Sequence record: OM386658.1
Source: Escherichia phage vB_EcoM_ESCO32
Direction: 5' to 3' (one strand)
DNA: 64,000 bases
Positions 3,210 to 41,376 of this stretch are shown in pieces. Every line of letters begins with the position of its first letter. Within the stretch, counting starts at the first letter, position 1. Made by a program: the position numbers and the translations under genes. The notes beneath the pieces are model-generated. The model was not told where the DNA came from and searched no databases. It was given only the letters and a program-made list of their open reading frames with translations.

Positions 3210-3421
3210 GCTGTACGCTCGACAATAATAATGGTTTGCGGTATCTCGTTTTCTACTACTAACAAGGCTTTTTTCTGTGTGATAGATATTTTAACACGTT
3301 GTAAAGTAGCGGTAAAATCTTTCATTTCATTATGCGCGGATTTAGTGCAATGCCATATTTCAGGTTTACCAATTTGCAAGCCGCGTAAAAATTCTGTTTT
3401 ACCTGTCTTATTCGTGATCAT
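3206..3421 (-). CDS. hypothetical early protein (about 71 aa)
   Basis: ORF track frame 3206..3439 (TTG in track); in-frame ATG (MITNKTGK) with AAGGTG RBS preferred. Confidence 0.45.
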   Translation of the reverse strand: MITNKTGKTEFLRGLQIGKPEIWHCTKSAHNEMKDFTATLQRVKISITQKKALLVVENEIPQTIIIVERTA

Positions 3422-3431
3422 TTGATTCACC

Positions 3432-3536
3432 TTATCCAATACCGTGGGAAGATAGGATCATGTTAGCCATAGTTGCAACCAATCCAACCGATAACACCAG
3501 GCCAACTACTACAACCGTGAAAATTTTCTCTAACAT
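3432..3536 (-). CDS. possible small hydrophobic peptide (34 aa)
   Basis: ATG with GAGGG RBS directly downstream of a promoter/hairpin cassette; MLEKIFTVVVVGLVLSVGLVATMANMILSSHGIG; below the ORF-track size cut-off. Confidence 0.25.
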   Translation of the reverse strand: MLEKIFTVVVVGLVLSVGLVATMANMILSSHGIG

Positions 3537-3554
3537 GATTCTACCCTCATTAAT

Positions 3555-3616
3555 GGGCGTTGCCTTATTGCCCCGCCCTATGTCGTACACTTTACCAGAT
3601 AACTGAATATTGTCAA
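3555..3616 (-). promoter_or_regulatory. early promoter plus imperfect leader stem-loop
   Basis: minus strand TTGACA-16 bp-TAAAGT then GC-rich imperfect palindrome GGGCGGGGCAAtaaggCAACGCCC. Confidence 0.5.
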
Positions 3617-3617
3617 A

Positions 3618-3812
3618 CTATTTTTTACAAGGGATCAGTAAACTTCTTGCTACCGCTTCACGTAAACCTTTACTTTTTATTAAATCTATTGTTGCAGGGT
3701 GGCAAGTAAAAGCCTTTGACCATTTTTGATCACCTGGTTTACGGGCGAAAATGTAAACTTCTCCGTCGATTTCATCCCAACGAGTATTGCTTGTTAGTTT
3801 TTTAAGCGCCAT
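3618..3812 (-). CDS. hypothetical early protein (about 64 aa)
   Basis: ORF track frame 3618..3842; track start (GTG) falls in the leader hairpin; in-frame ATG (MALKKL) chosen. Confidence 0.45.
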   Translation of the reverse strand: MALKKLTSNTRWDEIDGEVYIFARKPGDQKWSKAFTCHPATIDLIKSKGLREAVARSLLIPCKK

Positions 3813-3833
3813 GCTGATTTCTCTTTTAGTTAT

Positions 3834-3892
3834 GAGCGGCACTATTGCCGCCCTACGAAATACATTCTACCCGATTTATAATTGTTGTCAAA
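3834..3892 (-). promoter_or_regulatory. early promoter plus leader stem-loop cassette (variant B)
   Basis: minus strand TTGACA-16 bp-TAGAAT then GGGCGGCAatagTGCCGCTC (3834-3853). Confidence 0.55.
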
Positions 3893-4162
3893 CTATTTTT
3901 TCAAGCTCGACCAGTCAAAACACGGGGCGATCTCGTTAAAACTTGTGCCCTGTAAAGCACATAATTTTTTAGCAATAGCCGCCGTGACCTGGCGCTGTAC
4001 GCGCGGATCTGCTACTGATTGGAGAAAGTAGGCGGCTTTATATGTGATCATGCTTTCGCCTGTTTCCTTGTTAACGTGGTGCACGGTTTTAGCCTTATCA
4101 TCTTTTACCAGGGTGTAACCGGATTCGATGGCCTTGATTGCAACGTCCAATGATATTTTCAT
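3893..4162 (-). CDS. hypothetical early protein (89 aa)
   Basis: ORF track; ATG preceded by AAGAGATAA-type sequence and hairpin. Confidence 0.55.
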   Translation of the reverse strand: MKISLDVAIKAIESGYTLVKDDKAKTVHHVNKETGESMITYKAAYFLQSVADPRVQRQVTAAIAKKLCALQGTSFNEIAPCFDWSSLKK

Positions 4163-4181
4163 GATTTATCTCTTTATTGAT

Positions 4182-4203
4182 GGCGGGGAATACTCCCCCC
4201 GCC
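4182..4203 (-). promoter_or_regulatory. intercistronic GC-rich stem-loop without promoter
   Basis: GGCGGGGaatactCCCCCCGCC sits 8 nt after the stop of the upstream small ORF and 20 nt before the next ATG; no -35/-10 pair and no U-tract. Confidence 0.5.
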
Positions 4204-4210
4204 TTATTAA

Positions 4211-4381
4211 TTACTCTTCATCGTCGCCGTTGTAGTATTCAATGCCGTTTTCATCGGTTACGGTAATATTAACGCCACCGATAGCAACACGATCACGGGC
4301 AAACGTCATGGCTTCATTTAAATCTTCAGACCAAAAAATATTGTGACCTTTGCGCGATACATAAAACATAGTCGGGATCAT
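4211..4381 (-). CDS. small hypothetical protein (56 aa)
   Basis: unannotated gap ORF MIPTMFYVSRKGHNIFWSEDLNEAMTFARDRVAIGGVNITVTDENGIEYYNGDDEE; fills the gap between two cassettes. Confidence 0.45.
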   Translation of the reverse strand: MIPTMFYVSRKGHNIFWSEDLNEAMTFARDRVAIGGVNITVTDENGIEYYNGDDEE

Positions 4382-4402
4382 GATTTGTTTCTCTTCTGTT
4401 GT

Positions 4403-4464
4403 GAGCGGGAAACCACTTCCCGCCCTATGTGATAAACTTTACTACGTTGTTTTTCTGCTGTCAA
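4403..4464 (-). promoter_or_regulatory. early promoter plus leader stem-loop cassette
   Basis: minus strand TTGACA-17 bp-TAAAGT then GGCGGGAAgtggTTTCCCGCTC. Confidence 0.6.
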
Positions 4465-4465
4465 A

Positions 4466-4750
4466 TTATTTTTTAATGTTTTGCCCTACAAAATTGATCA
4501 CTTCCTTAAGCTGTTTCTCAGTCATGATCGTGCCTGGTAATTCTTCTTTGATTTCTTCCGGTAAATAGATATTACCGCGCCAAGTTAATAAACAACAGTT
4601 TTGATCTTCGCAGATGGAATAAGAGAAGATCCACTCATTATCATTCTCAAGCTCCCAAAAGCACAAAAAATCTTCTTTCCCTAAGTTTTCAACGGTTAAG
4701 CATAATCCGCGACGTGCTGCATAGTTGGAAAGTGCTTTTGTGATCTTCAT
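4466..4750 (-). CDS. hypothetical early protein (94 aa)
   Basis: ORF track; ATG; cassette upstream. Confidence 0.55.
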   Translation of the reverse strand: MKITKALSNYAARRGLCLTVENLGKEDFLCFWELENDNEWIFSYSICEDQNCCLLTWRGNIYLPEEIKEELPGTIMTEKQLKEVINFVGQNIKK

Positions 4751-11990: not shown

Positions 11991-12221
11991 GTCTTACATA
12001 CAGAAGAGGAAGCGCCACCCCCACGGCGTAAAGGCGGGGCTAACATACCAGGGCACTACTGGTTGGAAGGTTGATCGCCGGTAGCTCGTCTAAAATAAAT
12101 TTGTAAAGAAATGTAAAGATAAAAATAATTGCTTGCTTTTGTTGTTGGTTATGCTATTCTTATTGTATGGCGAGGGGACACGGGAGCGCGAGACAAACAC
12201 CGCCCCTGCGCGTTATTCTCT

Positions 12222-12332
12222 AAATGAGAAAATTCTCATTTGCTAATGATTCTCATTCTCTTACTGAGAATGATTATCACTTACATAGTTAAATGATAAT
12301 GATTCTCATTTACAAATGAGAATCATTATCAT
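12222..12332. promoter_or_regulatory. cluster of AT-rich palindromes with Fur-box similarity
   Basis: AAATGAGAAaaTTCTCATTT (12222-12241) and perfect 19-bp inverted repeat ATGATAATGATTCTCATTTacAAATGAGAATCATTATCAT (12293-12332); halves fit TGATAATnATTATCA at 13-14 of 15. Confidence 0.4.
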
Positions 12333-12353
12333 ACGCACACCTATAAAAACACG

Positions 12354-12552
12354 AAATTGAACTTTTCATTTTTGATTTTTCTACGGAAAAAGGCAAAAAA
12401 ACTTTAAATAAACTGGGGAATTTTTAAAAAATTGAAGTTTTCATTTTCTAAACCTGGATAGAAATACGTACAAAAACTTTAAATAATTTTGACCAAACTT
12501 GAACTTTTCATTTTCTAAATTTGTACCCAAAAATCTGTAAAAACTTTAAATA
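12354..12552. repeat. three tandem imperfect 58-bp direct repeats (iteron-like)
   Basis: units at 12354-12411, 12429-12486, 12495-12552 share TTGAAcTTTTCATTTTcTAAA ... AAAAACTTTAAATAAtTTTG; ORF-free AT-rich region. Confidence 0.6.
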
Positions 12553-12772
12553 ATTTTGTCCTTTTTATAAAAATGATTTTACTGTTCTGTTATAAATAGT
12601 AGCTAAGAGATAATGTGTCTTTTAAAAACCAAATAGCATAGTCCAACAAACAAATTAAATAATTTATTAACAGAGTACAAAATAATACTTACTCTGGATA
12701 TATTATTCAGAGGGTGAATTTCCGTACATGAAACCCACACCCCTTTTTATAAAAATAAAAATTTTCAAAATA

Positions 12773-13324
12773 TCAGGAAATATCAGATTGTGCTTTTAGA
12801 TAAACAGCAAGGTCTGTATGCCATTTTCCTAAAAGATTTTGTCCTTTCCAACAGTCCTTATTTTCCACATCACGATCCCACATCCCCATTTTGATACCAT
12901 AAATAGAATCATAAGGGCTTGCCTCTACGAACTCCTTATCGGCGTAAGCAATAAGTTTATTTTTGAGATCTTCATTTTGTGTGTATTTAAGATACAAACC
13001 ACGCTTGACAATCTTCTCTCGTAAAGAAGTCCAGGTATCTTCATCATAATCTTTAACTAATCTGCCTAGTCGCTTATAATATGCTTGTTCTTTTTCTCCT
13101 GTATATCTTAGACCTCCGGTTAAAATAGAAGATGCAATGTTGTAATCATAAAATAAACATGCTTTTCTCCACATCATATATTGTTCCACACAAGTAAATT
13201 CAACAGAACTTGTAATAGAATTATTATACTTGGGAGCTAAAGGTTCAATAAAAGATGATAGATACCAGTTGCTAAATTCATCTTTTGCCGAGAAGAAGAA
13301 CACATACTTATCAGTAATCCGCAT
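12773..13324 (-). CDS. NADAR-domain (YbiA-like) protein, putative ADP-ribose or N-glycoside hydrolase
   Basis: ORF track 183 aa; FFFSAKDEFSNWYLSSF ... EQYMMWRKA ... ASPYDSIYGIKMG ... GQNLLGKWHTDLAVYL follows the NADAR pattern recalled from E. coli YbiA. Confidence 0.7.
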   Translation of the reverse strand: MRITDKYVFFFSAKDEFSNWYLSSFIEPLAPKYNNSITSSVEFTCVEQYMMWRKACLFYDYNIASSILTGGLRYTGEKEQAYYKRLGRLVKDYDEDTWTSLREKIVKRGLYLKYTQNEDLKNKLIAYADKEFVEASPYDSIYGIKMGMWDRDVENKDCWKGQNLLGKWHTDLAVYLKAQSDIS

Positions 13325-14503
13325 TTACACCTCCTTACTGTATACTAACTTGCCACCATGTTGTGTAATAATTTTTTGAAGATTTTCCAAATCAGAAGCA
13401 CTTACTGTTTCTGTATGACCATCTTTCAACTCTCTTGCTGTTAAAATACCAGTTTTTAGTTTTTTCTTTATAGCTCTTTCAGCAGCCTTACACTGTTTCA
13501 CTGTACTAAAATCATATAAACAAATACGCTCCATAAAAAACATATTATGCCTATTTTGATTGTTTAATCGCCTGTCACTATCTTTAGCTATGCCAAACTT
13601 AAGAGCAACTATAATATCATTATCTTTAACAATATTAATATATAATTGCTGTTGACTATGACCTGCACATTGTGGACAACCTTGACCGTGGCTTAATAAG
13701 TTATTAACACGCCCTATCTGCTCCCCATGCACAAGACAAAGATATTTAAACTTACCTGTAGAAGATGGTTTGGTAATCCAATCTACCCAGACATACCCTT
13801 TCCCTTCTACTTCCTTTTTTACCCTATAGGTGATCTGGTCTTCTGTATACTGATAGTTCCCACAACGACACGGAATGTACCCTTGTTTAAGGCGATTTCC
13901 TTTAGAGTAAAATTTACCATCACAAACACCTGCTTGAACATATTCATCATGAGAGCAAACAGGACATTCAACCATCCAGGTAATATGCCTACATCCTTTA
14001 CCCCGTGTTCCTGTGTTAGTGAAGATAGTGCCTTCCTTAAATTTCCCTGTAGAAAAGAAACCTGCAATATGTTGATCGTCGGACATTGTTTGTTTCTCCC
14101 TCCTACATTGTGGACAACCTCGACCGACTTTAAATTGATCAATTGCTGTACTTTGCCATCTATTCCCACAATGGCACAACAAATCAAGTTTTGTGTAACA
14201 CCCTTTCCATTCTCCAACGTACCCTAATACTTGATACTCCTTCTTCTGTGCTATCTCTTCCAAGATCGGTAATTCTGCTTCCCATGTTAACGGCTTATTC
14301 CTTGCACATGTCGGACAACCACGTCCATTCTTAAAATCATTAATGCTCGTGGTGTTCCATTCTCCATGATCAGAGCAAGATAGCTTAAGTTTAGTCTTGT
14401 TCCCTTTCCATTCTCCCGTCCATCCTAAGATTTGGATTTGCTTACTCTCTGCTATTGGTTGACACTCTTCTTTATATTGTTCCCATGATTTTGGTGCTAC
14501 CAT
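13325..14503 (-). CDS. zinc-ribbon repeat protein with C-terminal GIY-YIG/T5orf172-like domain
   Basis: ORF track 392 aa; at least three copies of G(W/Y)xGEWKG...KLxLxC..(H)G..W.....I..FK.GRGCP.CA; C-terminal LYINIVKDNDIIVALKFGIAKDSDRRL. Confidence 0.65.
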   Translation of the reverse strand: MVAPKSWEQYKEECQPIAESKQIQILGWTGEWKGNKTKLKLSCSDHGEWNTTSINDFKNGRGCPTCARNKPLTWEAELPILEEIAQKKEYQVLGYVGEWKGCYTKLDLLCHCGNRWQSTAIDQFKVGRGCPQCRREKQTMSDDQHIAGFFSTGKFKEGTIFTNTGTRGKGCRHITWMVECPVCSHDEYVQAGVCDGKFYSKGNRLKQGYIPCRCGNYQYTEDQITYRVKKEVEGKGYVWVDWITKPSSTGKFKYLCLVHGEQIGRVNNLLSHGQGCPQCAGHSQQQLYINIVKDNDIIVALKFGIAKDSDRRLNNQNRHNMFFMERICLYDFSTVKQCKAAERAIKKKLKTGILTARELKDGHTETVSASDLENLQKIITQHGGKLVYSKEV

Positions 14504-14540: not shown

Positions 14541-14568
14541 AAAACCCGCCGGAGCGGGTTTTTATTTG
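14541..14568. terminator. intergenic GC hairpin, possible attenuator/terminator
   Basis: AAACCCGCcggaGCGGGTTT followed by TTTATTTG on plus strand and weaker U-tract on minus; lies between two minus-strand genes. Confidence 0.4.
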
Positions 14569-14577
14569 CTGGCTTAC

Positions 14578-15705
14578 TTAAAACACGCTTGCCAAAGTTG
14601 CACCATTGGTGATAGTTGGTTCCAGAACAATACGGAAAGAATCTTCTGGATCATCACTAAACACAACGATTTTACCACCTGTAATAAGATCTGCTTTCAT
14701 TTTTGTCGCATTCAATGGAATTCGAGCATCGCCTTCATCATCAAAAACCACGTAAGAGCTATTAGCAAGGGCTTCTTTAGAGTCTGCATCACTTGGAGAT
14801 GACAAGTACACGTCTAGTGTGCACGAGCCACCTAAAAAGATTGCAGGTGTAAAGTTATGCCAACTAGATACCCAGCTAACTTTCTGAAGTTTTCCATTAA
14901 TAACAACGCTACTGATATCCCATTTATTACCCCCACCCAAAGAAACGCCCATCATAGAGATACATTCTTTAAAGGATAAATCAGGGTAGAAATTAAGTTC
15001 TTCTACTATACCTTGGATCACATCAAAGGACAACTCTAAACTTACATCCCAAAGTCTTTGGAAATTATCAAAGTGTGCTTTGTTATCCAGGTTTTTATCT
15101 AAATAGTCAATCATAGTTTCTAGTGAGATTTTATCATAATTAAAATTATAAAACACACGACTAGGACGATTTAAAAAGAATTCAGAGATAAAACCACTGT
15201 TTTTAGTCAGAATAAACAGTTTATTACCACTGCCAGTACCATCTAACAAAGTGAGAAGTGCTTCTTGATCTTGTTTCTTCTCATACACTTTATCAAACTC
15301 GTCAAAAATAATCACTGCTTTGTCGGTGATCTTGCTAATAAGTTCAATGAAATTAGCATCACTGTAGGCTTGAGTAACCATAATAGTAGGAATACCTTCT
15401 TCTACAAGGTCACGACTAATGAGTTTGGCTAACATAGTTTTACCACTACCCTTAGTTCCTGTCAGAAGCAATCCTGTATTTTTACCTTGTGCACTCCGGC
15501 GATGGAATGTACGGATAACGTGATTTGCTCGTTTTTCTGTTTCACCATACAGAACATCCGGTACACCTGTCAGATTACCACGGCTTAAAAAATAATTGCC
15601 AAGGGGATCACGACTAACAGTATAGAATCCAGGTGGAAGATAGTTAGATTCCACGCCCATATCTTTATTTACACTTACAATATCACCATAAATCGTGTAT
15701 TTCAT
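14578..15705 (-). CDS. P-loop NTPase (AAA-like), paralog of CDS 30467..31627
   Basis: ORF track 375 aa; Walker A GTKGSGKT, Walker B IIFDEFD; about 45 percent identical by eye to the N-terminal 230 aa of the plus-strand paralog. Confidence 0.8.
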   Translation of the reverse strand: MKYTIYGDIVSVNKDMGVESNYLPPGFYTVSRDPLGNYFLSRGNLTGVPDVLYGETEKRANHVIRTFHRRSAQGKNTGLLLTGTKGSGKTMLAKLISRDLVEEGIPTIMVTQAYSDANFIELISKITDKAVIIFDEFDKVYEKKQDQEALLTLLDGTGSGNKLFILTKNSGFISEFFLNRPSRVFYNFNYDKISLETMIDYLDKNLDNKAHFDNFQRLWDVSLELSFDVIQGIVEELNFYPDLSFKECISMMGVSLGGGNKWDISSVVINGKLQKVSWVSSWHNFTPAIFLGGSCTLDVYLSSPSDADSKEALANSSYVVFDDEGDARIPLNATKMKADLITGGKIVVFSDDPEDSFRIVLEPTITNGATLASVF

Positions 15706-31627: not shown

Positions 31628-31633
31628 GTGATA

Positions 31634-31660
31634 AAAGGAGGCGAAAGCCTCCTTTATTTA
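31634..31660 (+). terminator. rho-independent terminator
   Basis: AAAGGAGGCgaaaGCCTCCTTT followed by ATTTAT. Confidence 0.6.
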
Positions 31661-31673
31661 TATGGAGGGTATT

Positions 31674-31865
31674 ATGGATCATTATTTTGTTTTTAAAGAT
31701 AAAGTTGATACCGCAGGTGGTCACGTTGCTAAAAATGATCGTGACATTAAAGAAGTATTAGGAGATCTGATTAACATTTTAGAACAAAAAGAGTTGCTTT
31801 TAGATAAGGATATTGCTAGACTTCTGGGTGTGGGGATAAGTGACATACAAAGATTACCATTCTAA
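31674..31865 (+). CDS. hypothetical protein (63 aa)
   Basis: ORF track frame 31662..31865; start placed at ATG (MDHYFVFKDK) with GGAGGG RBS. Confidence 0.45.
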   Translation: MDHYFVFKDKVDTAGGHVAKNDRDIKEVLGDLINILEQKELLLDKDIARLLGVGISDIQRLPF

Positions 31866-31876
31866 AGGGGAAGAAA

Positions 31877-32032: not shown

Positions 32033-32034
32033 AA

Positions 32035-32691: not shown

Positions 32692-33541
32692 TCAAATTCA
32701 ACATTTTGCTAATACTTTTACTAACCTGAAGGAAGCAAAATTTAACATTGCAGATTATTCCAAGCTAAAGTTTGGTAGTAACCAGGCAGCAAAAAGAATG
32801 GGGCGCATTCTGGCTGAAAGTTTCTTTTCCAAGTATGAAGAACGACTGGTAAATGAAAGTTTTGTTGTTATTCCATCTCCATATAACTATGTGAAAAATG
32901 CAGCTACAGTGTTATCTGAACATTTTGTAGATCACCTCAACTACCTAATCTCTATCAAAGGAGGTAAAGCAGTGGAGTGGGATATCGTTCATCGTAAAGT
33001 GAGCTATATCAATGATTATGGATTTCTTAGCAAAGAAGATCGTAAGGCTTTGATCGATGGTGACACTTTCTCTATCAATCGTGATTTCTGGGGTAATAAA
33101 ACTCTGATTTTCATTGATGATGTTAATATTACAGGAACGCACGAAGAAAAACTTATTGAAATTTTAGACAAAGAAGGTGTTGAAAACGATACGTTTTTCC
33201 TGTACTTTGCAAAGTATGAAGGTACAGAAGCCAATACCGAAGCTGCACTTAACTTCAACTATATCAATAACCTGGCAGCTTTTATTAAAATGATTAAACA
33301 AGAAACTGATGCTAAATGTTTGGTTCGTCCTATTAAGTATCTAATGAGTCAAAGCGAAGTTGATTTTAAAATTGCACTTTCACAGCTTCCTTTGTATTAT
33401 GTAGAACAACTGTTCTTTGGTTGCCTTGCAGAAGGCTACAATAACATTGAAAAATATAAAGAGAACTTTGATTTCCTACGTCAATTTTTTGAAAGCAACA
33501 TTATCAACAAATCTAATGTTAAAGGGGATTATTATGTCTAA
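32684..33541 (+). CDS. phosphoribosyltransferase-like protein
   Basis: ORF track 285 aa; PRPP-binding-type motif KTLIFIDDVNITGTHEEK. Confidence 0.65.
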   Translation: MRNQIQHFANTFTNLKEAKFNIADYSKLKFGSNQAAKRMGRILAESFFSKYEERLVNESFVVIPSPYNYVKNAATVLSEHFVDHLNYLISIKGGKAVEWDIVHRKVSYINDYGFLSKEDRKALIDGDTFSINRDFWGNKTLIFIDDVNITGTHEEKLIEILDKEGVENDTFFLYFAKYEGTEANTEAALNFNYINNLAAFIKMIKQETDAKCLVRPIKYLMSQSEVDFKIALSQLPLYYVEQLFFGCLAEGYNNIEKYKENFDFLRQFFESNIINKSNVKGDYYV

Positions 33542-34250
33542 TAAAGTAATGACTTTCGGAGATCCTATCACCAATATTACAGAAAAAGATTTTGGGCGTG
33601 TAGCAACAGATAAAGATGGTGTCTTAAGAATTCGTGTACAAGGTATTACAGCACAGGATGAATATGCTGTGTATGTTTCAGGTCTTAACTATATTGATGA
33701 TCGCATTACACAAAACTTTGCACTGATCGGTGGTGTAGAGAAAATGTATTGGGAAGATGAAATTGTAACAAGTTATCCGGCAGGTATCATTGAGGTATAC
33801 GGTGATCTTTTAGCAGCAGCCGAGAGAGGCGATATAGACGCTATAGCACACTGCTGTAACTGTTTTTGCACTATGGGTAGTGGTATTGCACCAAAAATTA
33901 AAAGCAAGTGGCCTGGTGCGTTTAAAGCAGATTGTGCCACTAAACGTGGTGATTATAAAAAATTAGGTACGTTTACCAAATATATAGAAAACAATTTGAC
34001 AATTTATAATTTATATGGACAATATGGTTATAGTCGTCGTGAGGAAGGTAAGCGTGACCTGAATTATGAAGCTATCTACAATGCGTTAGATAGTATGGGA
34101 GACGATGTTGTATCTTCAGGCGGTAAAATTGTAGGTTTACCAATGCTTGGTTGTGGTTTGGCTGGAGGTTCTTGGAGTATTGTAAAACTTATGATCGAAG
34201 AAACTCTAGTAAACAAAGGTTTAAATGTAATTGTTTACAAACTGAAATAA
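33534..34250 (+). CDS. macro-domain-like protein (ADP-ribose binding or hydrolase)
   Basis: ORF track frame 33417..34250; start at ATG with AAAGGGG RBS; DAIAHCCNCFCTMGSGIAPKI and IVGLPMLGCGLAGGSW resemble macro-domain glycine-rich motifs. Confidence 0.6.
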   Translation: MSNKVMTFGDPITNITEKDFGRVATDKDGVLRIRVQGITAQDEYAVYVSGLNYIDDRITQNFALIGGVEKMYWEDEIVTSYPAGIIEVYGDLLAAAERGDIDAIAHCCNCFCTMGSGIAPKIKSKWPGAFKADCATKRGDYKKLGTFTKYIENNLTIYNLYGQYGYSRREEGKRDLNYEAIYNALDSMGDDVVSSGGKIVGLPMLGCGLAGGSWSIVKLMIEETLVNKGLNVIVYKLK

Positions 34251-34806: not shown

Positions 34807-35784
34807 ATGCAACTGGGTTTCCCAATTATTGATGTGGTTGTTTTAGTGGGTATTTTAGTCTTGTCGATTTGTATTGACTTCTTTGGACACAGAGAAAACA
34901 AAGAAATTTCATTTAAATCTGCAATTGGCTGGTCAATTTTCTGGATTGGGGTATCATTAGCCTACTATGGTTTTGTATACTTCCAACACGGTGCTGATTT
35001 TGCGAGCTTGTTCTTGAGTGGGTATGTGTTGGAGAAATCTCTTTCTGTAGATAACTTAGTAGTATTTGTAGCAGTATTCGCAAGTTTTGGTATTAAAAGC
35101 ACACACTTGCAGCACAAGATTCTACTTTGGGGTATTGCAGGTGCGATTGTCTTCCGAGGTGTGTTTGTAGCAGTAGGTACTTACTTGTTGAGTTTGGGCT
35201 GGTATGTTAATATCTTCTTCGGTGCTGTCATCCTTTTCTGTGCGGCTAAAATGGTATTCGCTGGAGATAATGATGCAGAAGTTGATTACTCTAAACACTG
35301 GGCTACTCGCATTGTTCGTAAGCTGTTCCCTGTATCTGATCAGATGGATGGTGAGAAGTTCTTCACAATCAAAAATGGTGTTCGTGTAGCAACTCCGGCT
35401 CTGGTTTGTGTGTTTGTAATGGAAATGGTTGACGTAATCTTTGCAGTAGACTCTGTTCCAGCAGTAATTGCAGTGACACAAGAACCTCTGCTGGTGTTCT
35501 CTTCGATGCTCTGTGCAATCTTAGGTTTACGTGCTCTGTTCTTTGTTCTTAGTGTTGCACTGAAGTATTTGGTTCATCTGGAGAAAGCAGTTATCGTAGT
35601 CCTGGTGTTTGTGGGTGTAAAACTGATGTATCACCCGTTTGCAGAAACTCTGCACGCAAAAGTGAGTTTCCTGCCAGCACACATTGACCCGACGATCAGT
35701 ATGTATATTGTGTTAGGTACTCTTGGGCTGGGTGTTCTTGCAAGTTTAATCTTCCCTGAAAAAGAAGACCAGGCTGTTGCTTAA
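34807..35784 (+). CDS. terC: TerC-family integral membrane protein
   Basis: ORF track 325 aa; multiple TM helices; TerC-type motifs LEKSLSVDNLVVFVAVF and VDVIFAVDSVPAVIAV. Confidence 0.85.
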   Translation: MQLGFPIIDVVVLVGILVLSICIDFFGHRENKEISFKSAIGWSIFWIGVSLAYYGFVYFQHGADFASLFLSGYVLEKSLSVDNLVVFVAVFASFGIKSTHLQHKILLWGIAGAIVFRGVFVAVGTYLLSLGWYVNIFFGAVILFCAAKMVFAGDNDAEVDYSKHWATRIVRKLFPVSDQMDGEKFFTIKNGVRVATPALVCVFVMEMVDVIFAVDSVPAVIAVTQEPLLVFSSMLCAILGLRALFFVLSVALKYLVHLEKAVIVVLVFVGVKLMYHPFAETLHAKVSFLPAHIDPTISMYIVLGTLGLGVLASLIFPEKEDQAVA

Positions 35785-35790
35785 TTCATT

Positions 35791-35813
35791 AAGCCCCTTC
35801 GGGGGCTTTATTG
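35791..35813 (+). terminator. rho-independent terminator
   Basis: AAGCCCCttcgGGGGCTT followed by TATTG. Confidence 0.55.
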
Positions 35814-35823
35814 AGGTGATCTG

Positions 35824-36030
35824 ATGGTGGTTTTACGTGTTCTTTGGATTCTGTTTGAAAATATTTGTTTTGCTCTAGGGTTGTTTTGTTTGATTTTTAT
35901 CTTGACAACATATATTGATAACCATACAATTACTATCAACAGGAACGGAGAACAGATGTATTGTTTCTCTAGGGATTTTAAAAATTGTGTTGAGATTTTA
36001 AATGAGAGGGTTACAAATGAAAAACATTAA
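35824..36030 (+). CDS. possible small membrane protein (68 aa)
   Basis: ORF track; GAGGTG RBS; hydrophobic N-terminus. Confidence 0.35.
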   Translation: MVVLRVLWILFENICFALGLFCLIFILTTYIDNHTITINRNGEQMYCFSRDFKNCVEILNERVTNEKH

Positions 36031-36607
36031 ATCTTTTATTGTTGCAGTTGTTTTAGGTAGTGCATTGCTGGTAGGTTGTGATGATTCTGAAAATGTACAA
36101 AATCAACGTTACCAACAAACACCAAATCAGATGGTAGATGAACAATATGTAAATCAGCCTGCACCTCAAGTTGTTCAAGCAGCACCTGCACAACCTTCAA
36201 CAGTTGTTGTGCAAGGAGGCGGCAGTGGTTCTTCTGGCGTAGGTGAGTTTGCTACAGGTATGCTTCTTGGTCATATGTTGAGTGGTAATAGTGGCGGTGG
36301 TGGTTATAGAGATGGCGGTAGCAATACAACAATTATCAATAACAACGCTGCTCCTACAACTAATAGTAAAGCATATACAACACAAAAGCATAGGTTTTAT
36401 GATAAACAAGGGAATACATATACAACCACTAAACAAAACACAATTAAGCAGCAAAGTGTACAAACGTATTCACGCCCATCAACAACAAAAGTGAATAGTG
36501 ATTACTCTGCTCGTAAGTCTTACTCAAGTCCTATTAGCTCTTATAGTAAGTCTTCGAAAAGTTATTCTTCGTCGAAACGTAGTTTTAGTAGCTCACGTCG
36601 TCGTTAA
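36017..36607 (+). CDS. lipoprotein with Ser/Tyr/Lys-rich low-complexity tail
   Basis: ORF track frame 36002..36607; start at MKNIKSFIVAVVLGSALLVGC (lipobox LVGC); C-terminal SYSKSSKSYSSSKRSFSSSRRR. Confidence 0.6.
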   Translation: MKNIKSFIVAVVLGSALLVGCDDSENVQNQRYQQTPNQMVDEQYVNQPAPQVVQAAPAQPSTVVVQGGGSGSSGVGEFATGMLLGHMLSGNSGGGGYRDGGSNTTIINNNAAPTTNSKAYTTQKHRFYDKQGNTYTTTKQNTIKQQSVQTYSRPSTTKVNSDYSARKSYSSPISSYSKSSKSYSSSKRSFSSSRRR

Positions 36608-36642
36608 TAATTTAATACAGATTAAATAAGAAGGAGAAACAG

Positions 36643-37494
36643 ATGAAACTAGAAGTTGGTAAAGTGTATCGCCTGGAAGGTTGGATCTTTAATCAAGAAA
36701 TTCTTGAGAAGAATAAAGATGGTTTTGAGTTTGTTGGTACTACCAAGGAAAGTATGCACAATGACGAATACTGTAAATTCGTTGGTAAAAATACAGGTCA
36801 AGAACAATTTTGCTTTAAGAGCGCAATCGGTGATTATGCTTCTGTAATGCCAACACCAGAAAAGACTTCGAAGCAATATACTGTCTTTGGTGTAAAACTT
36901 GAAGAACTTGTAGAACACCCACGTTTTGAAGAGTTCAAGGTTGCTGCAATGCGCAAGCATTCTGAAATTAAAATACATAATTTGTTTGATTTAGAAGATC
37001 GGTTTGATATCTTTATGTATGATCGCAGGGAAAAGCATTTTGATGCAACGACTTCAAAATTTGCTGCAACAGAGGATATTAAAATCCTTGATGTTGATAC
37101 CTTTCTTGAGAGTGTATCGTTTGTATTCATTCCTAAATACAAAAAACGTAGTGATCATAAACGTGTGAAAGGAACTCCTCGTAAAAAACGTACTGTAAAC
37201 AAAGCAACTTTGCACTTCACTTCTGGTGATAAATATACTCTCAAAGGGTTTGAAAGTGTTTTGTATGATGCTGGAACGGGTAATATCAAGTTTATCATTA
37301 AGGCAACCTACAAAGGTACGGTATTGCACGAAGAGGCTGTTACACTACCTGTATTCGATATCTCTCGTGTTGAGGTACGGGGTGTTAAAGAGTCCTTCGA
37401 TCTGGATTTCTTAACCGCTAATGATACTGGTTATGTTAATCTGGAAGCAGATGGAGCATTTATTACTACAAATTATTTAGATATGTTTGTTTAA
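36643..37494 (+). CDS. hypothetical protein (283 aa)
   Basis: ORF track; AAGGAGAAA RBS. Confidence 0.65.
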   Translation: MKLEVGKVYRLEGWIFNQEILEKNKDGFEFVGTTKESMHNDEYCKFVGKNTGQEQFCFKSAIGDYASVMPTPEKTSKQYTVFGVKLEELVEHPRFEEFKVAAMRKHSEIKIHNLFDLEDRFDIFMYDRREKHFDATTSKFAATEDIKILDVDTFLESVSFVFIPKYKKRSDHKRVKGTPRKKRTVNKATLHFTSGDKYTLKGFESVLYDAGTGNIKFIIKATYKGTVLHEEAVTLPVFDISRVEVRGVKESFDLDFLTANDTGYVNLEADGAFITTNYLDMFV

Positions 37495-37562
37495 TACTTA
37501 ACTTGTGTTATGATGGTGGTACAGAGGTATCACCATTTACTAAAGAATATGGAGGAAAATGA

Positions 37563-38666
37563 ATGTCCAGTCCTTTTATCAGTGCCGTAAAAAGCAAACC
37601 GTCTGAAATGAGTGTATTCACGGCAACAACAGAAAAAAGTAAGTCTTTGTTTGCTCCAAGTGCTATGGATGCAAGCCCTGTATATGCCCCTGCTGTTGCA
37701 CGACCTGTACAAATGCTGCCTCCAATGTCTCGTGAAGAGATTGAACAAGTTGGTGCTGATGCAGGACTTACTCTTCGTAACCTTAATGCTGAAGTGCTTA
37801 AACACCAACGTTCATCTCAGGGGGATGAAATGAGTGAACGTTTAACTGCACTTATTAAGCAAGCAAAGCAACTTGATCCTAACTCTATTAAACAATCTAA
37901 AGGCTTAGGTAAACTAGTTAAGAAAGTATTAGGTATGAAAGAAGATTTGTTTGGTGAATTTGACACCATCAATAATCGTATTGAAGGTTTGGTAAAGACA
38001 CTACAAACAGATTTGAAAAAAGAAGAAGATTCTTTACGATATCTGCAACGTTTAGAAGAGGCTATTGCAAAATATGCTCTTAGCTTAAACAGGGATATAG
38101 AGCTTCTAACAGCTACTTATGAAAAAGAAGAAGTTCGCCTTAATACACTACCTGAAAATGAAGTAGAAGAACGTCAACGTACTCGTGATACTATGGATCT
38201 GCTTGAAATTCGTATTGCAGACCTGAAAGCCTTGCGTTTACTGTGTGTTCAGATGGGGCCACGTGTACAAAGTATGCAGAAAGTATCTGCAAGTTTGATG
38301 CGATCAGCCCGTAATATTGTGAATAATGTTATTCCTGCTTACTCTGCAAACTTTTCTATGTATATTGAAAGTCTACGCCAGAAGAAAGCAGCAGATACAC
38401 AGAACAATGTACTGAATGAGTTTAATGCTGCTATTGCAATGGGTAGTGATCTGGCTGCACAAAACCAAATTGAAGCTACACAACTTGCTAATCGTCAAGT
38501 ATTGGATATTGAGACATTACGTCGCGATCAAGAAAACTTAGTTAAAATGTTGGAAGAAACTAATCGGATCAACACTGAAGCCCGTGCTGCTCGTATTGAT
38601 TACATTCAGGAAGTGCAATCTCTTGAAGATGGTATGATTCAAACTGTTAAACGTGGTCTACTTTAA
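37563..38666 (+). CDS. telA: TelA-like (toxic anion resistance family) protein, tentative
   Basis: ORF track 367 aa; long alpha-helical protein of TelA size in a TerC/TerD neighbourhood; assignment rests mainly on context. Confidence 0.5.
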   Translation: MSSPFISAVKSKPSEMSVFTATTEKSKSLFAPSAMDASPVYAPAVARPVQMLPPMSREEIEQVGADAGLTLRNLNAEVLKHQRSSQGDEMSERLTALIKQAKQLDPNSIKQSKGLGKLVKKVLGMKEDLFGEFDTINNRIEGLVKTLQTDLKKEEDSLRYLQRLEEAIAKYALSLNRDIELLTATYEKEEVRLNTLPENEVEERQRTRDTMDLLEIRIADLKALRLLCVQMGPRVQSMQKVSASLMRSARNIVNNVIPAYSANFSMYIESLRQKKAADTQNNVLNEFNAAIAMGSDLAAQNQIEATQLANRQVLDIETLRRDQENLVKMLEETNRINTEARAARIDYIQEVQSLEDGMIQTVKRGLL

Positions 38667-38679
38667 GGAGAAATATATT

Positions 38680-38886
38680 ATGAATATTAAAATTTACAAA
38701 CTGTCTGGTTCTATGATCGCTGTCCAGTACGACAATGAAGATCGTTATGTTCTCCTCCAGGATGCTTGGTTAGATGATCCTAATGTATTTACTGTCCTGC
38801 GAGAACTACGTTCTGTCTATACCTATTCTTCTAAAGATGGTTTTGATAGTTCAACGATGGAATTGGTAAAAGAGGAGAATGTGTAA
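38680..38886 (+). CDS. hypothetical protein (68 aa)
   Basis: ORF track frame 38653..38886; start at ATG with AAGGAGAAA RBS. Confidence 0.5.
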   Translation: MNIKIYKLSGSMIAVQYDNEDRYVLLQDAWLDDPNVFTVLRELRSVYTYSSKDGFDSSTMELVKEENV

Positions 38887-39086
38887 TGAATAAAGATATT
38901 CACTTAACTCGTGAAGAATTACAAACCATTATGGAAGATGCTTTCATTGATGGTTGGAAACAAGGTCAAGAGTCAGATTGGTATGATGCCGAAGACTTTT
39001 TGTATTATCATATGACTGCACCTGTAGACGAGCAAACACACTCTGAAACAACTTTGGCTATAATTGATCTTAAGGCTGGTGTATAA
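38886..39086 (+). CDS. hypothetical protein (66 aa)
   Basis: ORF track; TAATG coupling; contains LTREELQTIMEDAFIDGWKQG motif shared with next gene. Confidence 0.5.
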   Translation: MNKDIHLTREELQTIMEDAFIDGWKQGQESDWYDAEDFLYYHMTAPVDEQTHSETTLAIIDLKAGV

Positions 39087-39649
39087 TGGGATGTTTTAGT
39101 TTCTTGTGCAAAGAATCTGGTAATGCTGCTCTTTCTACCTCTTTCGATGGCTCTCCTTGCTACCTATTTCTTTTGAAAGGTGGTAAAGTTGTTGAAGAGA
39201 TGTATGGCAATTATGATAGCTATGGTAGTGTTTTCTCTAACGAAGAAGATAAACATGGCAATCGTAAAAGATTCAAGTGGTCTATGTCTTGGGAAGAAGT
39301 TTGTAATTTGATGTTCTCTTCCGATCTTGGAGATGGGATTGCTCTGGTATTAGAAGAGCACTTTACAGGCGAGATCCCAACAGAAAGATCTGAAGAAGAT
39401 CCTAACCAGGGTTGGGGTGATGGGGAAGAAGATCCAGATTGCTTCTTCAGCACTGAAAATAATAAATTTAAATGTGTTGACAATCCTTACCACAAAGTGC
39501 ATAATACTTGCATTGAGACAGAAGAAGACTCAAAGCTAGAAATTGAAGATGATTTAGTTGTAACTATCTCTTTAAACGAGTTGCAAAAAATCACTAGAGA
39601 GGCTTTCTATTTAGGTTGGAAAGTAGGTAAAGGAGGAGATAGTGCTTAA
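39086..39649 (+). CDS. hypothetical acidic protein (187 aa)
   Basis: ORF track; C-terminal LNELQKITREAFYLGWKVG repeats the motif of the preceding gene. Confidence 0.55.
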   Translation: MGCFSFLCKESGNAALSTSFDGSPCYLFLLKGGKVVEEMYGNYDSYGSVFSNEEDKHGNRKRFKWSMSWEEVCNLMFSSDLGDGIALVLEEHFTGEIPTERSEEDPNQGWGDGEEDPDCFFSTENNKFKCVDNPYHKVHNTCIETEEDSKLEIEDDLVVTISLNELQKITREAFYLGWKVGKGGDSA

Positions 39650-39911
39650 ATTTAATATCAAAGACGACAAATCAGATGAACCTAAATGTTTTGGAGAACT
39701 TGACGTAGGTGATACATTTGTATATTATGTTGCCTATCAAGATTCTGGTTTAGATACATTCAGAAATTTAGTGTTTATTAAGGTTAATACAAACCAAGCA
39801 ATGTGTCTGAACGGTTCGCAAAGAGGTCAACTTAGCTGTATTTCGTATGATACAGAAATGGTAGAAGTGGATTTAGAAGTTACTAACATTACACTCAGAA
39901 AGGAGAAATAA
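39642..39911 (+). CDS. hypothetical protein (89 aa)
   Basis: ORF track; GTG start with AAAGGAGGAG RBS. Confidence 0.45.
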   Translation: MLKFNIKDDKSDEPKCFGELDVGDTFVYYVAYQDSGLDTFRNLVFIKVNTNQAMCLNGSQRGQLSCISYDTEMVEVDLEVTNITLRKEK

Positions 39912-39912
39912 T

Positions 39913-40707
39913 ATGTCCAATAAAATCAGTCTTAAAAAACGTCAAGAAACTCTTACCGTATCTCTGCGTAAGAAAAAGATTAACGATGTTGTTCTTCGTG
40001 TCGGTAGTGCCTTAGATATTTCGGGTAGTATGTGTGAGCTGTATCGTGATGGCACTGTCAGTGATTTTGTAGGTAAGCTACTGCCGTTTGGTATGAAGTT
40101 TGATGATAATGCACAGATTGACATGTGGGCTTTCAATAGTTCTTCTTTTGAACTGCCTCCTGCAACGGCTGATGTATATGATGATTATGTCGGCTCTTGT
40201 ATGTCTAATGTTTGCATCAATGGTGGTACAGCTTATGCTCCAGTAATGCAAGAGATCTATGATACATACTTCGGTAGTGTACCTATGAAAAATATTACAC
40301 GCGAAGTCGTTGAGTATGAAGAAGTTCCGGCTAAGGGTTTCCTTGCTAAACTAACTGGTAAAAAAGAACGTGTAGAAGTTACACGTACTGTTGTAGAACA
40401 GGTTGTAGATACTGATGCACAAGTTGATCGTACTCCTGCAATGATTTTCTTCCAAACTGACGGGGAGAACATGGATACTTCAGCAGTACGTAGTTTGCTG
40501 AACAAACACCGCAACACTCCTGTTTACTGGTTTATGGTTGGTGTAGGTAATGCAAACTTTAAATTCCTGAAAGACTTGGCAAAAGAATACGATAACGTTG
40601 ATTTTATCGGTATTGCAGATTTGTCCTTGTCTGACGAAGAACTTTACGATAAACTGCTATCCGAAGAGTTTGGCGAGTGGGTTAAAAAATTTGGAGCAAA
40701 AGCGTAA
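39913..40707 (+). CDS. von Willebrand factor A domain protein (TerY-like)
   Basis: ORF track 264 aa; MIDAS-type DISGSM ... TDGEN; N-terminal ISLKKRQETLTVSL resembles the TerD N-terminus. Confidence 0.65.
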   Translation: MSNKISLKKRQETLTVSLRKKKINDVVLRVGSALDISGSMCELYRDGTVSDFVGKLLPFGMKFDDNAQIDMWAFNSSSFELPPATADVYDDYVGSCMSNVCINGGTAYAPVMQEIYDTYFGSVPMKNITREVVEYEEVPAKGFLAKLTGKKERVEVTRTVVEQVVDTDAQVDRTPAMIFFQTDGENMDTSAVRSLLNKHRNTPVYWFMVGVGNANFKFLKDLAKEYDNVDFIGIADLSLSDEELYDKLLSEEFGEWVKKFGAKA

Positions 40708-40714
40708 AAAACGC

Positions 40715-40742
40715 TTGACTTTGTAGAAAAGATTAGTAAAAT
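40715..40742 (+). promoter_or_regulatory. sigma70-type promoter upstream of terD
   Basis: TTGACT-16 bp-TAAAAT. Confidence 0.45.
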
Positions 40743-40779
40743 AGACAACGTAAATTAACAACAAAGGAGATAATAAATT

Positions 40780-41376
40780 ATGACTCAGAAAATTTCCCTG
40801 AAAAAAGGTTCTAGCGAAAAAGTTTCTCTGAAAAAGATTGCACCAGCACTGAAACGCATTCGTCTGGAATTCTCTTGGAAATCTAACGAAAAACTGGATC
40901 TGGATGTTAGTGCTCTGATTTGCCGACACAATGCATCTGGTCTGCCGGAACTGTTGTCTCCTCGCCACCTGGTATGCTACGCACAGAAATTTGATCCTGA
41001 ACGTTCTACTTTTGCAGGTGAAGATGTTCGTGACGGTGTAGGACAAATGGAGCAGATTGATGTTACACTGGATAATATCTCTGCTGAAGCACAGGAAATT
41101 GCATTCGTAATCACTATTGATGACGAAACGGGTAAGAAACGCCTTGGTCACGCTACCGAAGGTTTCCTTAAAATCTTCGATGATGAACGTAACGTTGAAC
41201 TGCTGGATTTTGACTTCTTGGCTCCAGAACTTGCAGGTAATACCATTTGCCACGTTGCCTCCCTGGTGCGGGAAGATAGCGAATGGAAACTGAAAGCATA
41301 TGGTGTAGGTAAAGCTGGACTTGACATTTATGATGTAGTTAAAGCGTTTGGCGCTGGCGACGATTGGTTCGAGTAA
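40780..41376 (+). CDS. terD: TerD-family tellurium-resistance/stress protein
   Basis: ORF track 198 aa; ISLKKGSSEKVSLKK ... KLDLDVSALIC ... FVITIDDE ... EDSEWKLKAYGVG aligns by eye with E. coli TerD. Confidence 0.85.
   Translation: MTQKISLKKGSSEKVSLKKIAPALKRIRLEFSWKSNEKLDLDVSALICRHNASGLPELLSPRHLVCYAQKFDPERSTFAGEDVRDGVGQMEQIDVTLDNISAEAQEIAFVITIDDETGKKRLGHATEGFLKIFDDERNVELLDFDFLAPELAGNTICHVASLVREDSEWKLKAYGVGKAGLDIYDVVKAFGAGDDWFE

Follow-up and report, generated by a model that had tools for sequence, protein, structure and literature searches.

A NADAR protein orthologous to the anti-DarTG1 factor AdfN^Bas60 and an unlinked TARG1-like macro-domain protein in a phi92-like Escherichia phage

The stretch of DNA analysed here (the window) comprises 64,000 nucleotides of Escherichia phage vB_EcoM_ESCO32 (OM386658.1), a phi92-like E. 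coli myovirus of the genus Justusliebigvirus. It contains a block of leftward genes that runs from ~17.16 kb to 12773 and is flanked by plus-strand genes on both sides, those on the one starting at ~17.28 kb and a small ORF on the other reaching to 11959, with a switch of the GC skew at ~17.4 kb. The last, promoter-distal gene of this block is an ATG-started ORF of 183 amino acids at 12773..13324 (minus strand), which encodes a NADAR protein and has exactly the boundaries, and the final place in a minus-strand island, that a sequence-only reading of this DNA had given it. That reading had also named a zinc-ribbon/GIY-YIG-like protein and an ATPase as its neighbours, and both were recovered by Pfam and PHROG searches. 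The gene directly upstream (13325..14503, minus strand) codes for a protein with four CapR-homology repeats of zinc-finger type (Pfam CapR, E = 1.4e-38) and a C-terminal T5orf172 domain, which is related to GIY-YIG (Pfam, E = 6.8e-5), and the product falls in a PHROG 'endonuclease' family (phrog_681, E = 6.7e-85). It is preceded by an AAA+ ATPase gene (14578..15705, minus strand; Pfam AAA, E = 1.5e-9; phrog_2376, E = 6.6e-108). A GC-rich, terminator-like hairpin, AAAACCCGCTCCGGCGGGTTTT, is found at 14541..14562, between the ATPase gene and the CapR/NADAR pair, and the annotation of phage Paula has terminators on both strands at this position.

The TAA stop of the CapR/T5orf172 gene abuts the NADAR ATG directly (TAAATG), and the NADAR Shine-Dalgarno sequence, AAGGAGGTG (13328..13336, minus strand), lies within the 3' end of the upstream gene, an arrangement that implies co-transcription and translational coupling of NADAR. 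The order ATPase-CapR-NADAR is kept in the sister genus Phapecoctavirus. The length of the CapR/T5orf172 gene varies between 1173 and 1404 nt among relatives, and in Phapecoctavirus the protein contains five CapR stretches and gives no match to T5orf172. No ART domain was found among the neighbours of NADAR, namely the CapR/T5orf172 protein, the AAA ATPase and a gene-free gap. Across the window, a promoter scan returned 31 candidates against 23±5 expected, which is roughly background, and Rfam and tRNA scans detected no RNA genes.

The assignment of the 183-residue protein to the NADAR family, proposed from the sequence alone, was upheld by a profile search (Pfam NADAR PF08719, E = 3.2e-36; 125.5 bits where the cutoff is 35.1; the match spans positions 9-154 of the 163-position profile), and the protein also matches the solved NADAR of P. 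nicotianae (8BAU, E = 9.4e-13). In the latter protein (PnNADAR), the residues that contact ADP-ribose or take part in catalysis are E43, K50, R79, W89, R93, E125, D130, and W133 (PMC11543638). Mapped onto the phage protein, these correspond to E47, K54, R88, W98, R102, E134, D139, and Y142, so that the site of a characterised NADAR is kept, with seven of the eight residues identical and one conservative replacement of Trp by Tyr (W133 to Y142).

The closest characterised relative is AdfN^Bas60, found in the BASEL phages Bas60, Bas61, and Bas62, which belong to the same genus; the proteins are all 183 residues long, share 98-99% identity with the window NADAR and have the same gene neighbourhood. 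The identity is 180/183 (98%) to the Bas60 protein and 181/183 (99%) to that of Bas62, and the three changes with respect to the Bas60 sequence (N62S, G71D, and A178T) spare the ADP-ribose-site residues. Homologues of AdfN^Bas60 with 95-100% identity are present in about 55 Justusliebigvirus records, Phapecoctavirus has relatives that are 57-59% identical, and more distant ones occur in about 660 other large myoviruses. Given the near-identity and the shared ATPase-CapR-NADAR order, the window gene is, by sequence comparison, an ortholog of AdfN^Bas60, effectively the same gene and already known.

AdfN^Bas60 was shown to neutralise the DarT1 toxin (Johannesman et al., Nat Commun 2025, PMC11825919). 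On DarTG1 hosts it restored the plaquing of RB69, T5, and Bas25 to full titre, it had no effect against DarTG2, and it needs no further phage factor to act, in contrast to AdfN^T4; these results were obtained by ectopic expression (PMC11825919). In the literature we found neither a knockout of AdfN^Bas60 in its native phage nor a statement of natural DarTG1 resistance in Bas60-62. From the near-identity and the conserved active-site residues we infer that the window NADAR has anti-DarT1 activity. It would act as an orphan N-glycosidase, functionally like the DarTG1 antitoxin, stripping ADP-ribose from the amino group of guanine in DarT1-modified phage DNA, so that replication could proceed on hosts carrying DarTG1. 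The idea that this NADAR serves as a counter-defence against DNA ADP-ribosylation is thus borne out through the assays on the 98%-identical AdfN^Bas60 (PMC11825919).

Other members of the NADAR superfamily, AdfN^T4 (gp30.3) and DarG1 of the BC4488 type, have the same reported guanine de-ADP-ribosylation activity and are specific for DarT1-type damage. However, no pairwise similarity is detectable between gp30.3 and the window NADAR, which belong to different PHROGs (652 and 1017, respectively), and the residue at the subfamily-diagnostic position is Glu in the window NADAR (E134), His in gp30.3, and Asp in DarG1. Since E134 takes the place of the Asp, and no DarT1 gene is adjacent, identification of the protein as a DarG1-type antitoxin was rejected.

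A Glu at the diagnostic position is the YbiA-type residue, and it raises the alternative that the protein is a housekeeping N-glycosidase of the YbiA type whose substrates are riboflavin-pathway intermediates or soluble ADP-ribose derivatives, with the anti-DarT1 effect as a side activity of overexpression. In line with this, the protein exceeds the cutoff of the NCBIfam model for riboflavin biosynthesis intermediates N-glycosidases (TIGR02464, 109.7 bits against 73.7), and surveys by the Aravind group argue that soluble ADP-ribose derivatives are the main targets of phage NADARs (PMC9503650). Nevertheless, we regard this alternative as very improbable: AdfN^Bas60 fully neutralised DarT1 and brought three phages to full titre, and it falls outside the YbiA group in the published phylogeny (PMC11825919), whereas a separate study found that E. 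coli YbiA, although active on ADP-ribosylated guanine in vitro, gives no protection against DarT1 in cells (PMC11125620). In addition, no riboflavin-pathway (rib) genes are annotated around NADAR in close relatives. The mismatch between the in vitro and the cellular behaviour of YbiA means that the in vivo specificity of a NADAR cannot be read from its residues alone. A second, small-molecule substrate of the phage NADAR, next to its expected action on DarT1-modified DNA, is possible in view of the YbiA-type Glu and the TIGR02464 score.

The separate macro-domain protein that the sequence-only reading had placed at 33534-34250 was likewise confirmed (Pfam Macro PF01661, E = 1.1e-6; 29 bits where the cutoff is 22). 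The matches to the NADAR and Macro profiles are thus too strong to be accidental. Its gene (33534..34250, plus strand; 238 amino acids) is immediately preceded by those of a HAD-family hydrolase (32017-32691, plus strand; Pfam Hydrolase, E = 3.9e-6) and a ComF-like PRTase_3 (32684-33541, plus strand; Pfam PRTase_3, E = 1.1e-41), and the three reading frames overlap; the first 8 nt of the macro gene are shared with the end of PRTase_3 (ATGTCTAA), and AAAGGGGA lies ahead of the macro start. This synteny is kept in Phapecoctavirus and in metagenomic relatives. The remaining genes of a Ter-like cluster follow 3' of the macro gene, spanning 34807..41376 (plus strand), and include TerC (34807-35784, Pfam TerC 1.2e-38), TelA (37563-38666, Pfam TelA 5.1e-34), a vWA-TerF-like protein (39913-40707, Pfam vWA-TerF-like 7.2e-39), and TerD (40780-41376, Pfam TerD 5.1e-28), all on the plus strand.

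The protein is composed of an N-terminal extension (residues 1-84, 33534..33785, plus strand) and a macro core (residues 85-238, 33786..34250, plus strand). Outside Justusliebigvirus, the extension is seen in just a few metagenomic relatives, and only 69 of 2,901 phage records reach at least 80% query coverage of the protein. It is acidic (pI 4.4) and, in a prediction of low confidence (pLDDT 31-63, because only three sequences of the alignment carry it), rich in beta structure. Its sequence shows homology to the N-terminus of a phrog_1247 MazG-like ORF that a related phage carries between its PRTase_3 and macro genes (L015:5457-6011; 31% identity, E = 1e-7). By this homology to a separate ORF, the extension is therefore probably a gene-fusion remnant.

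The macro core is predicted with high confidence (AF2 model, pLDDT >90). Its matches among PDB sequences are SCO6735 (5e-16), BT1257 (2e-15), TARG1 (4e-10), and DarG (1e-3), with about 29-33% identity, and the same proteins are its closest solved relatives in fold, the Foldseek TM scores being 0.91 for TARG1, 0.83 for BT1257, 0.81 for DarG, and 0.79 for SCO6735, against 0.72-0.75 for Poa1p. Judged by these matches and the model, the core is of the TARG1/SCO6735/DarG (ALC1-like) class. Two residues, N109 and Q163, do not vary within the macro clade. Q163 sits at the position of SCO6735 Q85, TARG1 K84, and DarG K80, and the position of TARG1 D125 is occupied by Ala; the catalytic Lys and Asp125 are thus replaced by Gln163 and Ala, as in SCO6735. 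The first active-site loop (CNCFCTMGSGIA), in contrast, is TARG1-like and not SCO6735-like, and the core is less basic than SCO6735 (pI 8.2 against 9.7). SCO6735, TARG1, and DarG all cleave thymidine-ADP-ribose, SCO6735 despite its Gln and in a Q85-dependent manner (PMC9411070). As a TARG1-like hydrolase, the phage protein would remove a substituent at C1'' on the distal ribose of ADP-ribose. The possibility that it is DarG itself, the DarTG2 antitoxin, was discarded: the NCBIfam DarG match covers only positions 4-147 of 338 and, at 48 bits, stays below the cutoff of 250, and the macro core reaches to the end of the protein, with neither the C-terminal DarT-binding domain nor an adjacent DarT gene.

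The protein belongs to PHROG 335 (phrog_335, E = 2.6e-64), a family with homologues in about 2,900 phage records that also includes T4 Tk.4 and the Adpp of Vibrio phage Gary. Tk.4, also called AdfM^T4, has Gln at the equivalent of the catalytic position, as does the window protein, and its knockout sensitises T4 to DarTG2 (HIDEN-SEQ preprint 2025). This suggests one reading of the macro protein, that it is AdfM-type and de-ADP-ribosylates thymine in DarT2-modified DNA, so that together with NADAR it would cover both DarT families, as AdfN and AdfM do in T4. We hold this reading tentatively, at somewhat less than even confidence. Besides the shared PHROG, it is favoured by the detectable homology to Tk.4 (hhalign probability 99.9%; BLASTP E = 2e-17), by the thymidine-ADP-ribose DNA hydrolases SCO6735, TARG1, and DarG being the nearest solved relatives, by the DarG antitoxin being the sole NCBIfam match of the protein (E = 8e-13), by the correspondence of Q163 with Q85, a residue that SCO6735 cannot do without in the de-ADP-ribosylation of DNA (PMC9411070), and by the mildly basic core (pI 8.2). 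However, the protein as a whole is acidic (pI 5.4), the DarT-binding domain of DarG is missing, and both active-site loops differ from those of Tk.4 (YTQF and GAGIGKGNW). The identity to Tk.4 is 27-31%, against 41% to Adpp, and the gene lies among small-molecule enzymes (HAD, PRTase, and, in relatives, MazG-like) and not among DNA-metabolism genes; the T4 result, moreover, comes from a preprint. Isoelectric point and net charge were dropped as a proxy for DNA binding, T4 AdfM being itself acidic. A further protein named AdfM, gp104 of phage PhiKZ, has a demonstrated role against DarTG2 or on ADP-ribosylated thymine (Cell Rep 2026), but is of a lineage unrelated to Tk.4; by its description it is a separate macro protein, DarG-like and with a catalytic Lys.

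The higher identity to Adpp points to a different substrate. Gary Adpp converts ADPR-1''P to ADPR and has an anti-aRES phenotype (Osterman et al., bioRxiv 10.64898/2026.01.28.702374). In an Adpp-type reading, an aRES-type RES-domain defence would cleave NAD+ to nicotinamide and ADPR-1''P, the macro protein would act as a phosphatase turning ADPR-1''P into ADPR, and Adps and Namat, the NARP1 enzymes of the phage encoded elsewhere, would rebuild NAD+ from it. We consider this plausible, though a little short of an even chance. Gary Adpp is the closest characterised homolog of the macro protein (40.9% identity over 154 residues, E = 2e-31), and the two share the YGQY and GCGLAGGxW motifs; the GCGLAGGxW loop and the catalytic-position Gln are also common to SCO6735 and Adpp, and the Gln is found in the window protein, Adpp, and Tk.4 alike. 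The Adpp gene (GARY_182) is located between Adps and Namat, and members of the same clade adjoin NARP1/NAD-salvage genes in the unrelated phages CAb1, 5P1b, P0079, and P0045. The genome of Justusliebigvirus alia encodes adjacent Adps-like and Namat-like proteins (E = 3e-42 and 4e-139, respectively; Pfam), and the window-type macro protein is the only macro homolog in it. As to the defence itself, aRES is present in E. coli, Klebsiella, and Enterobacter.

A neighbour-joining tree of 130 macro sequences (100 bootstraps), in which the partial TARG1 sequence forms a long branch, places the window protein with the NARP1-adjacent proteins and leaves Tk.4 and SCO6735 outside, although the bootstrap support for this grouping is 14-39%. 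Genomic context also speaks against the Adpp-type reading. An Adpp is defined as lying within two genes of NARP1 (Adps/Namat), and the macro gene falls outside this range: in alia, Adps and Namat are at about 140.7-143.2 kb and the macro gene at about 57.5-58.2 kb, outside the NARP1 operon and >60 kb away. The presence of NARP1 in the window phage is itself taken from alia, which is 95-99% identical, as the region is outside the window. In addition, Gary Adpp differs in having no counterpart of the 84-residue extension, and the window gene is instead embedded in the Ter-like HAD/PRTase_3 cluster. By Foldseek, the fold resembles the DNA-acting TARG1 and DarG more closely than Poa1p, the canonical ADPR-1''P phosphatase. 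The Adpp results, too, come from a preprint. The nearest solved structure was rejected as a means of telling Adpp from AdfM, since the window protein, Adpp, and Tk.4 all match the TARG1/SCO6735/BT1257 cluster. It was also considered whether the macro, PRTase, and HAD genes represent NARP3, which was ruled out as NARP3 consists of PnuC and NadR.

The surroundings of the macro gene suggest a third alternative, in which macro, HAD, and ComF-like PRTase_3 form the 'nucleoside-derivative' arm of the Ter system, handling a phosphoribosylated metabolite unrelated to DarT or NAD+ defences. The overlapping HAD-PRTase_3-macro frames, the conservation of this synteny across Stephanstirmvirinae-like phages, and the complete Ter-like set downstream (TerC, TelA, vWA-TerF, and TerD) are consistent with it, and PRTase plus HAD is the predicted signal-biosynthesis module of Ter systems in the part of the published description available to us (PMC7824862). 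In that same part, however, a macro component is mentioned nowhere. The reading lacks a biochemical precedent, and T4-like, Pakpuna-like, and Vibrio phages have macro homologs from this clade but no Ter genes with them, so the link between macro and Ter is lineage-specific. Altogether, we find this explanation improbable.

Returning to the two ADP-ribose-directed readings, the in vivo substrate of the macro protein may be DNA, ADPR-1''P, or both, as far as its sequence and model indicate. The proposal that the phage could neutralise both DarT families therefore stands for its DarT1 half, through the match of NADAR to AdfN^Bas60, and its DarT2 half is plausible, with the macro protein closer in identity to Adpp than to Tk.4, so that the proposal as a whole is partly supported. 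A combined possibility, which we judge rather unlikely, is a bifunctional C1''-ADP-ribosyl hydrolase that would both reverse the DarT2 modification of thymine and dephosphorylate ADPR-1''P for the unlinked NARP1. We found no paper on the Justusliebigvirus macro protein in the literature, nor tests of Bas60-62 on DarTG2 or aRES.

Taken together, it is likely that the phage encodes two independent ADP-ribose-processing enzymes, a NADAR orthologous to AdfN^Bas60 and a TARG1-like macro hydrolase whose substrate would be DNA, ADPR-1''P, or both. A distance of 20 kb separates the two genes, which belong to different transcription units on opposite strands and have different upstream coupling partners; thus they do not form a coordinated pair, an operon, or a system. 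The NADAR result is biologically not new and confirms the conservation of a published anti-DarTG1 factor. If the bifunctional reading were true, NADAR and macro, two small enzymes, would cover DarTG1, DarTG2, and aRES, and the 'AdfM' and 'Adpp' of PHROG 335 would be one promiscuous family named twice; at present, two independent preprints of 2025-2026 assign two different counter-defence functions to this PHROG. Justusliebigvirus offers a natural test case, since the macro gene, NARP1, and NADAR are all present and mutually unlinked. Whether the macro enzyme is specific or promiscuous would guide the annotation of thousands of phage 'phosphatase/macro' genes, and would help to predict phage host ranges among clinical E. 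coli and Klebsiella that carry DarTG2 or aRES; this is relevant in practice, as therapy collections make use of phi92-like phages.

By megablast, the genomes closest to the window are those of phi92-like E. coli myoviruses of the genus Justusliebigvirus (Stephanstirmvirinae), with 94-99.7% nucleotide identity to outra, ESCO8, muut, Paula and BASEL PaulScherrer (Bas60), EmilieFrey and JohannJBalmer (Bas62). In some of these records the two genes of interest are already labelled, as 'putative YbiA-like N-glycosidase' and 'putative macrodomain protein'. Four to five 'Campylobacter phage' records (e.g. A150, MG065639) are near-identical to these E. coli phages, with a 97.5% identical macro protein, which suggests host mis-assignment or contamination.

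The sequence-only reading placed a NADAR gene at 12773-13324 (-), and the 183-aa ORF found there matches Pfam NADAR above the curated threshold (E=3.2e-36). Its surroundings are also as described: it comes last in a leftward gene block beginning near 17.16 kb, directly preceded by a gene with four CapR zinc-finger-type repeats and a T5orf172 domain (13325-14503, (-)), with an AAA ATPase gene (14578-15705, (-)) next beyond. The CapR/T5orf172 stop and the NADAR start meet in a TAAATG junction, which together with a strong Shine-Dalgarno sequence couples the two genes; a terminator-like hairpin separates this pair from the ATPase gene. The CapR-repeat gene differs in length within the genus (1173-1404 nt; 3319-4722 in comparison locus L003), and its counterpart in Phapecoctavirus REC (L022:1492-2952) has five CapR stretches in 486 aa and lacks a T5orf172 match, variability that is typical for a fast-evolving or mobile endonuclease-like gene. 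The window holds two AAA ATPase genes that are close in size, 14578-15705 (375 aa) upstream of the NADAR block and 30467-31627 (386 aa) upstream of the macro/Ter block, both annotated in relatives as 'putative ATPase or Zn metalloprotease'.

Adjoining the NADAR stop codon is an AT-rich, gene-free gap of about 690 bp (12084-12772), in which Rfam and tRNA searches returned nothing. It contains a perfect 19-nt palindrome at 12293-12332 (ATGATAATGATTCTCATTT/AAATGAGAATCATTATCAT), with additional half-site copies at 12232-12264, and three tandem direct repeats of about 70 nt each (12354-12574), every one with a AAAAACTTTAAATAAT core, of which a fourth copy lies at 12646-12665. Phage alia has two annotated repeat_regions at the corresponding site. 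Candidate functions for the gap are an operator/iteron array, a cluster of promoters or an origin.

The NADAR protein is identical at 180/183 positions to the Bas60 protein and at 181/183 to that of Bas62. The former was named AdfN^Bas60 by Johannesman et al. (Nat Commun 2025, PMC11825919), who showed by ectopic expression that in E. coli it neutralises DarT1 toxicity without any other phage factor and lets RB69, T5 and Bas25 plate at full titre again on hosts with DarTG1, with no effect on DarTG2; we found no native-phage knockout in the literature. We mapped residues on the solved P. nicotianae NADAR (8BAU), using the ADP-ribose-site list of Schuller et al. 2023, and all eight are kept (E47, K54, R88, W98, R102, E134, D139 and Y142), the three substitutions relative to Bas60 falling outside them. 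The proposed anti-DarT function is therefore fully supported, and was already published for the near-identical AdfN^Bas60; judged by its sequence, this gene is one already characterised and known. The subfamily-diagnostic residue is Glu (YbiA-type), whereas DarG1 has Asp and T4 gp30.3 has His, and the protein passes the NCBIfam riboflavin-intermediate N-glycosidase model; despite both features, the published phylogeny places AdfN^Bas60 outside the YbiA group (PMC11825919). No pairwise similarity to T4 AdfN was detected and the two are assigned to different PHROGs, a pattern that fits independent capture. The 716 phage records with a homolog include Kayvirus, Listeria A511/P100-like and Enterococcus phiEF24C-like phages, and several of the homologs carry the wrong label 'GTP cyclohydrolase II'.

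The second gene, at 33534-34250 (+), likewise encodes a macro-domain protein as read (238 aa; Pfam Macro E=1.1e-6, above the curated threshold). The nearest solved proteins by sequence are SCO6735 (5e-16), BT1257, TARG1 (4e-10) and DarG (1e-3). In the AlphaFold model, residues 85-238 form a confident core (pLDDT >90) that superposes best on TARG1 (TM 0.91), followed by BT1257 (0.83), DarG (0.81) and SCO6735 (0.79), with Poa1p more distant (0.72-0.75). SCO6735, TARG1 and DarG each release ADP-ribose that is linked to thymidine in DNA (PMC9411070). The catalytic Lys position of TARG1 and DarG is Gln163 in the window protein, as in SCO6735, where this Gln (Q85) is essential (PMC9411070); unlike DarG, the window protein has no DarT-binding domain. 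It belongs to PHROG 335, together with T4 Tk.4 (27-31% identity, BLASTP E=2e-17, hhalign probability 99.9%). A 2025 preprint named Tk.4 AdfM and showed that T4 becomes sensitive to DarTG2 when it is deleted. For the window protein, a physiologically relevant anti-DarTG2 role is a serious possibility, if somewhat short of probable.

The same PHROG includes GARY_182 of Vibrio phage Gary, whose gene sits between Adps and Namat. Osterman et al. (bioRxiv 2026) describe this protein as Adpp, an ADPR-1''-phosphate phosphatase that enables NAD+ rebuilding by NARP1 after aRES defence. Adpp is 40.9% identical to the window macro core (E=2e-31) and shares its YGQY and GCGLAGGxW loops, whereas Tk.4 has YTQF and GAGIGKGNW. 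NARP1 or NAD-salvage genes also adjoin other close clade members, in Pakpunavirus CAb1, Vibrio phage 5P1b, a 64-kb metagenomic phage and a jumbo phage, and a neighbour-joining tree groups the window protein with NARP1-adjacent proteins, leaving Tk.4 and SCO6735 outside, with bootstrap values of only 14-39%. The complete genome of Justusliebigvirus alia has adjacent Adps-like (Prs-like, 297 aa, E=3e-42) and Namat-like (NAPRTase family, 577 aa, E=4e-139) genes with Pfam support at about 140.5-143.2 kb (L013:40514-43212), a region outside the window and >60 kb from the macro gene, and holds no second macro homolog; the pair resembles a NARP1 pathway for NAD+ reconstitution, one not linked to the macro gene. 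An Adpp-type role is as serious a possibility as the anti-DarTG2 role, and likewise somewhat short of probable. A 368-kb jumbo-phage contig (GCA_040384245.1, L017:5001-5911) carries two macro genes in tandem, of 149 and 154 aa, with 48% identity between the product of the first and the window macro core, near NUDIX, NAMPT, HAD_SAK_2 and SIR2 genes, and two macro activities may be split between these paralogs.

The macro gene lies in a phage-borne Ter-like cluster (30467-41376), after genes for an AAA ATPase (30467-31627), a HAD hydrolase (32017-32691) and an overlapping ComF-like PRTase_3 (32684-33541), whose stop overlaps the macro start, and upstream of TerC (34807-35784), TelA (37563-38666), vWA-TerF-like (39913-40707) and TerD (40780-41376). 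Synteny of this region is kept in Phapecoctavirus and metagenomic relatives. According to PMC7824862, PRTase and HAD form a predicted nucleoside-derivative arm of Ter systems. That the macro protein processes a Ter-module metabolite is improbable. Its 84-residue N-terminal extension (33534-33785), for which AlphaFold gives no confident structure, is essentially confined to the genus (69 of 2,901 records) and shows homology (E=1e-7) with the N-terminus of a 184-aa MazG-like pyrophosphatase (phrog_1247, L015:5457-6011), which in a metagenomic relative has an ORF of its own, placed between PRTase_3 and macro. The extension is probably a fusion remnant, and the comparison suggests that Justusliebigvirus lost most of the MazG-like gene, with the 5' end of that gene becoming fused to macro.

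In both reported activities of the macro family, the group removed is the C1'' substituent on the distal ribose, which is phosphate for one and thymine N3 for the other; promiscuity is therefore plausible. The anti-DarTG2 and Adpp-type roles are compatible, but that both hold is unlikely, and sequence evidence cannot decide between them. The idea of one phage countering both DarT families thus stands for its NADAR part, as published, and only in part for the macro gene, which by homology is a new member of a known family with a predicted function. The two genes are on opposite strands, 20 kb apart, and do not constitute a system; T4, with AdfN and AdfM, has already been described as a phage with both hydrolase classes (2025 preprint). 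Justusliebigvirus is a clean test case for the question of specific versus bifunctional activity in PHROG 335 enzymes.
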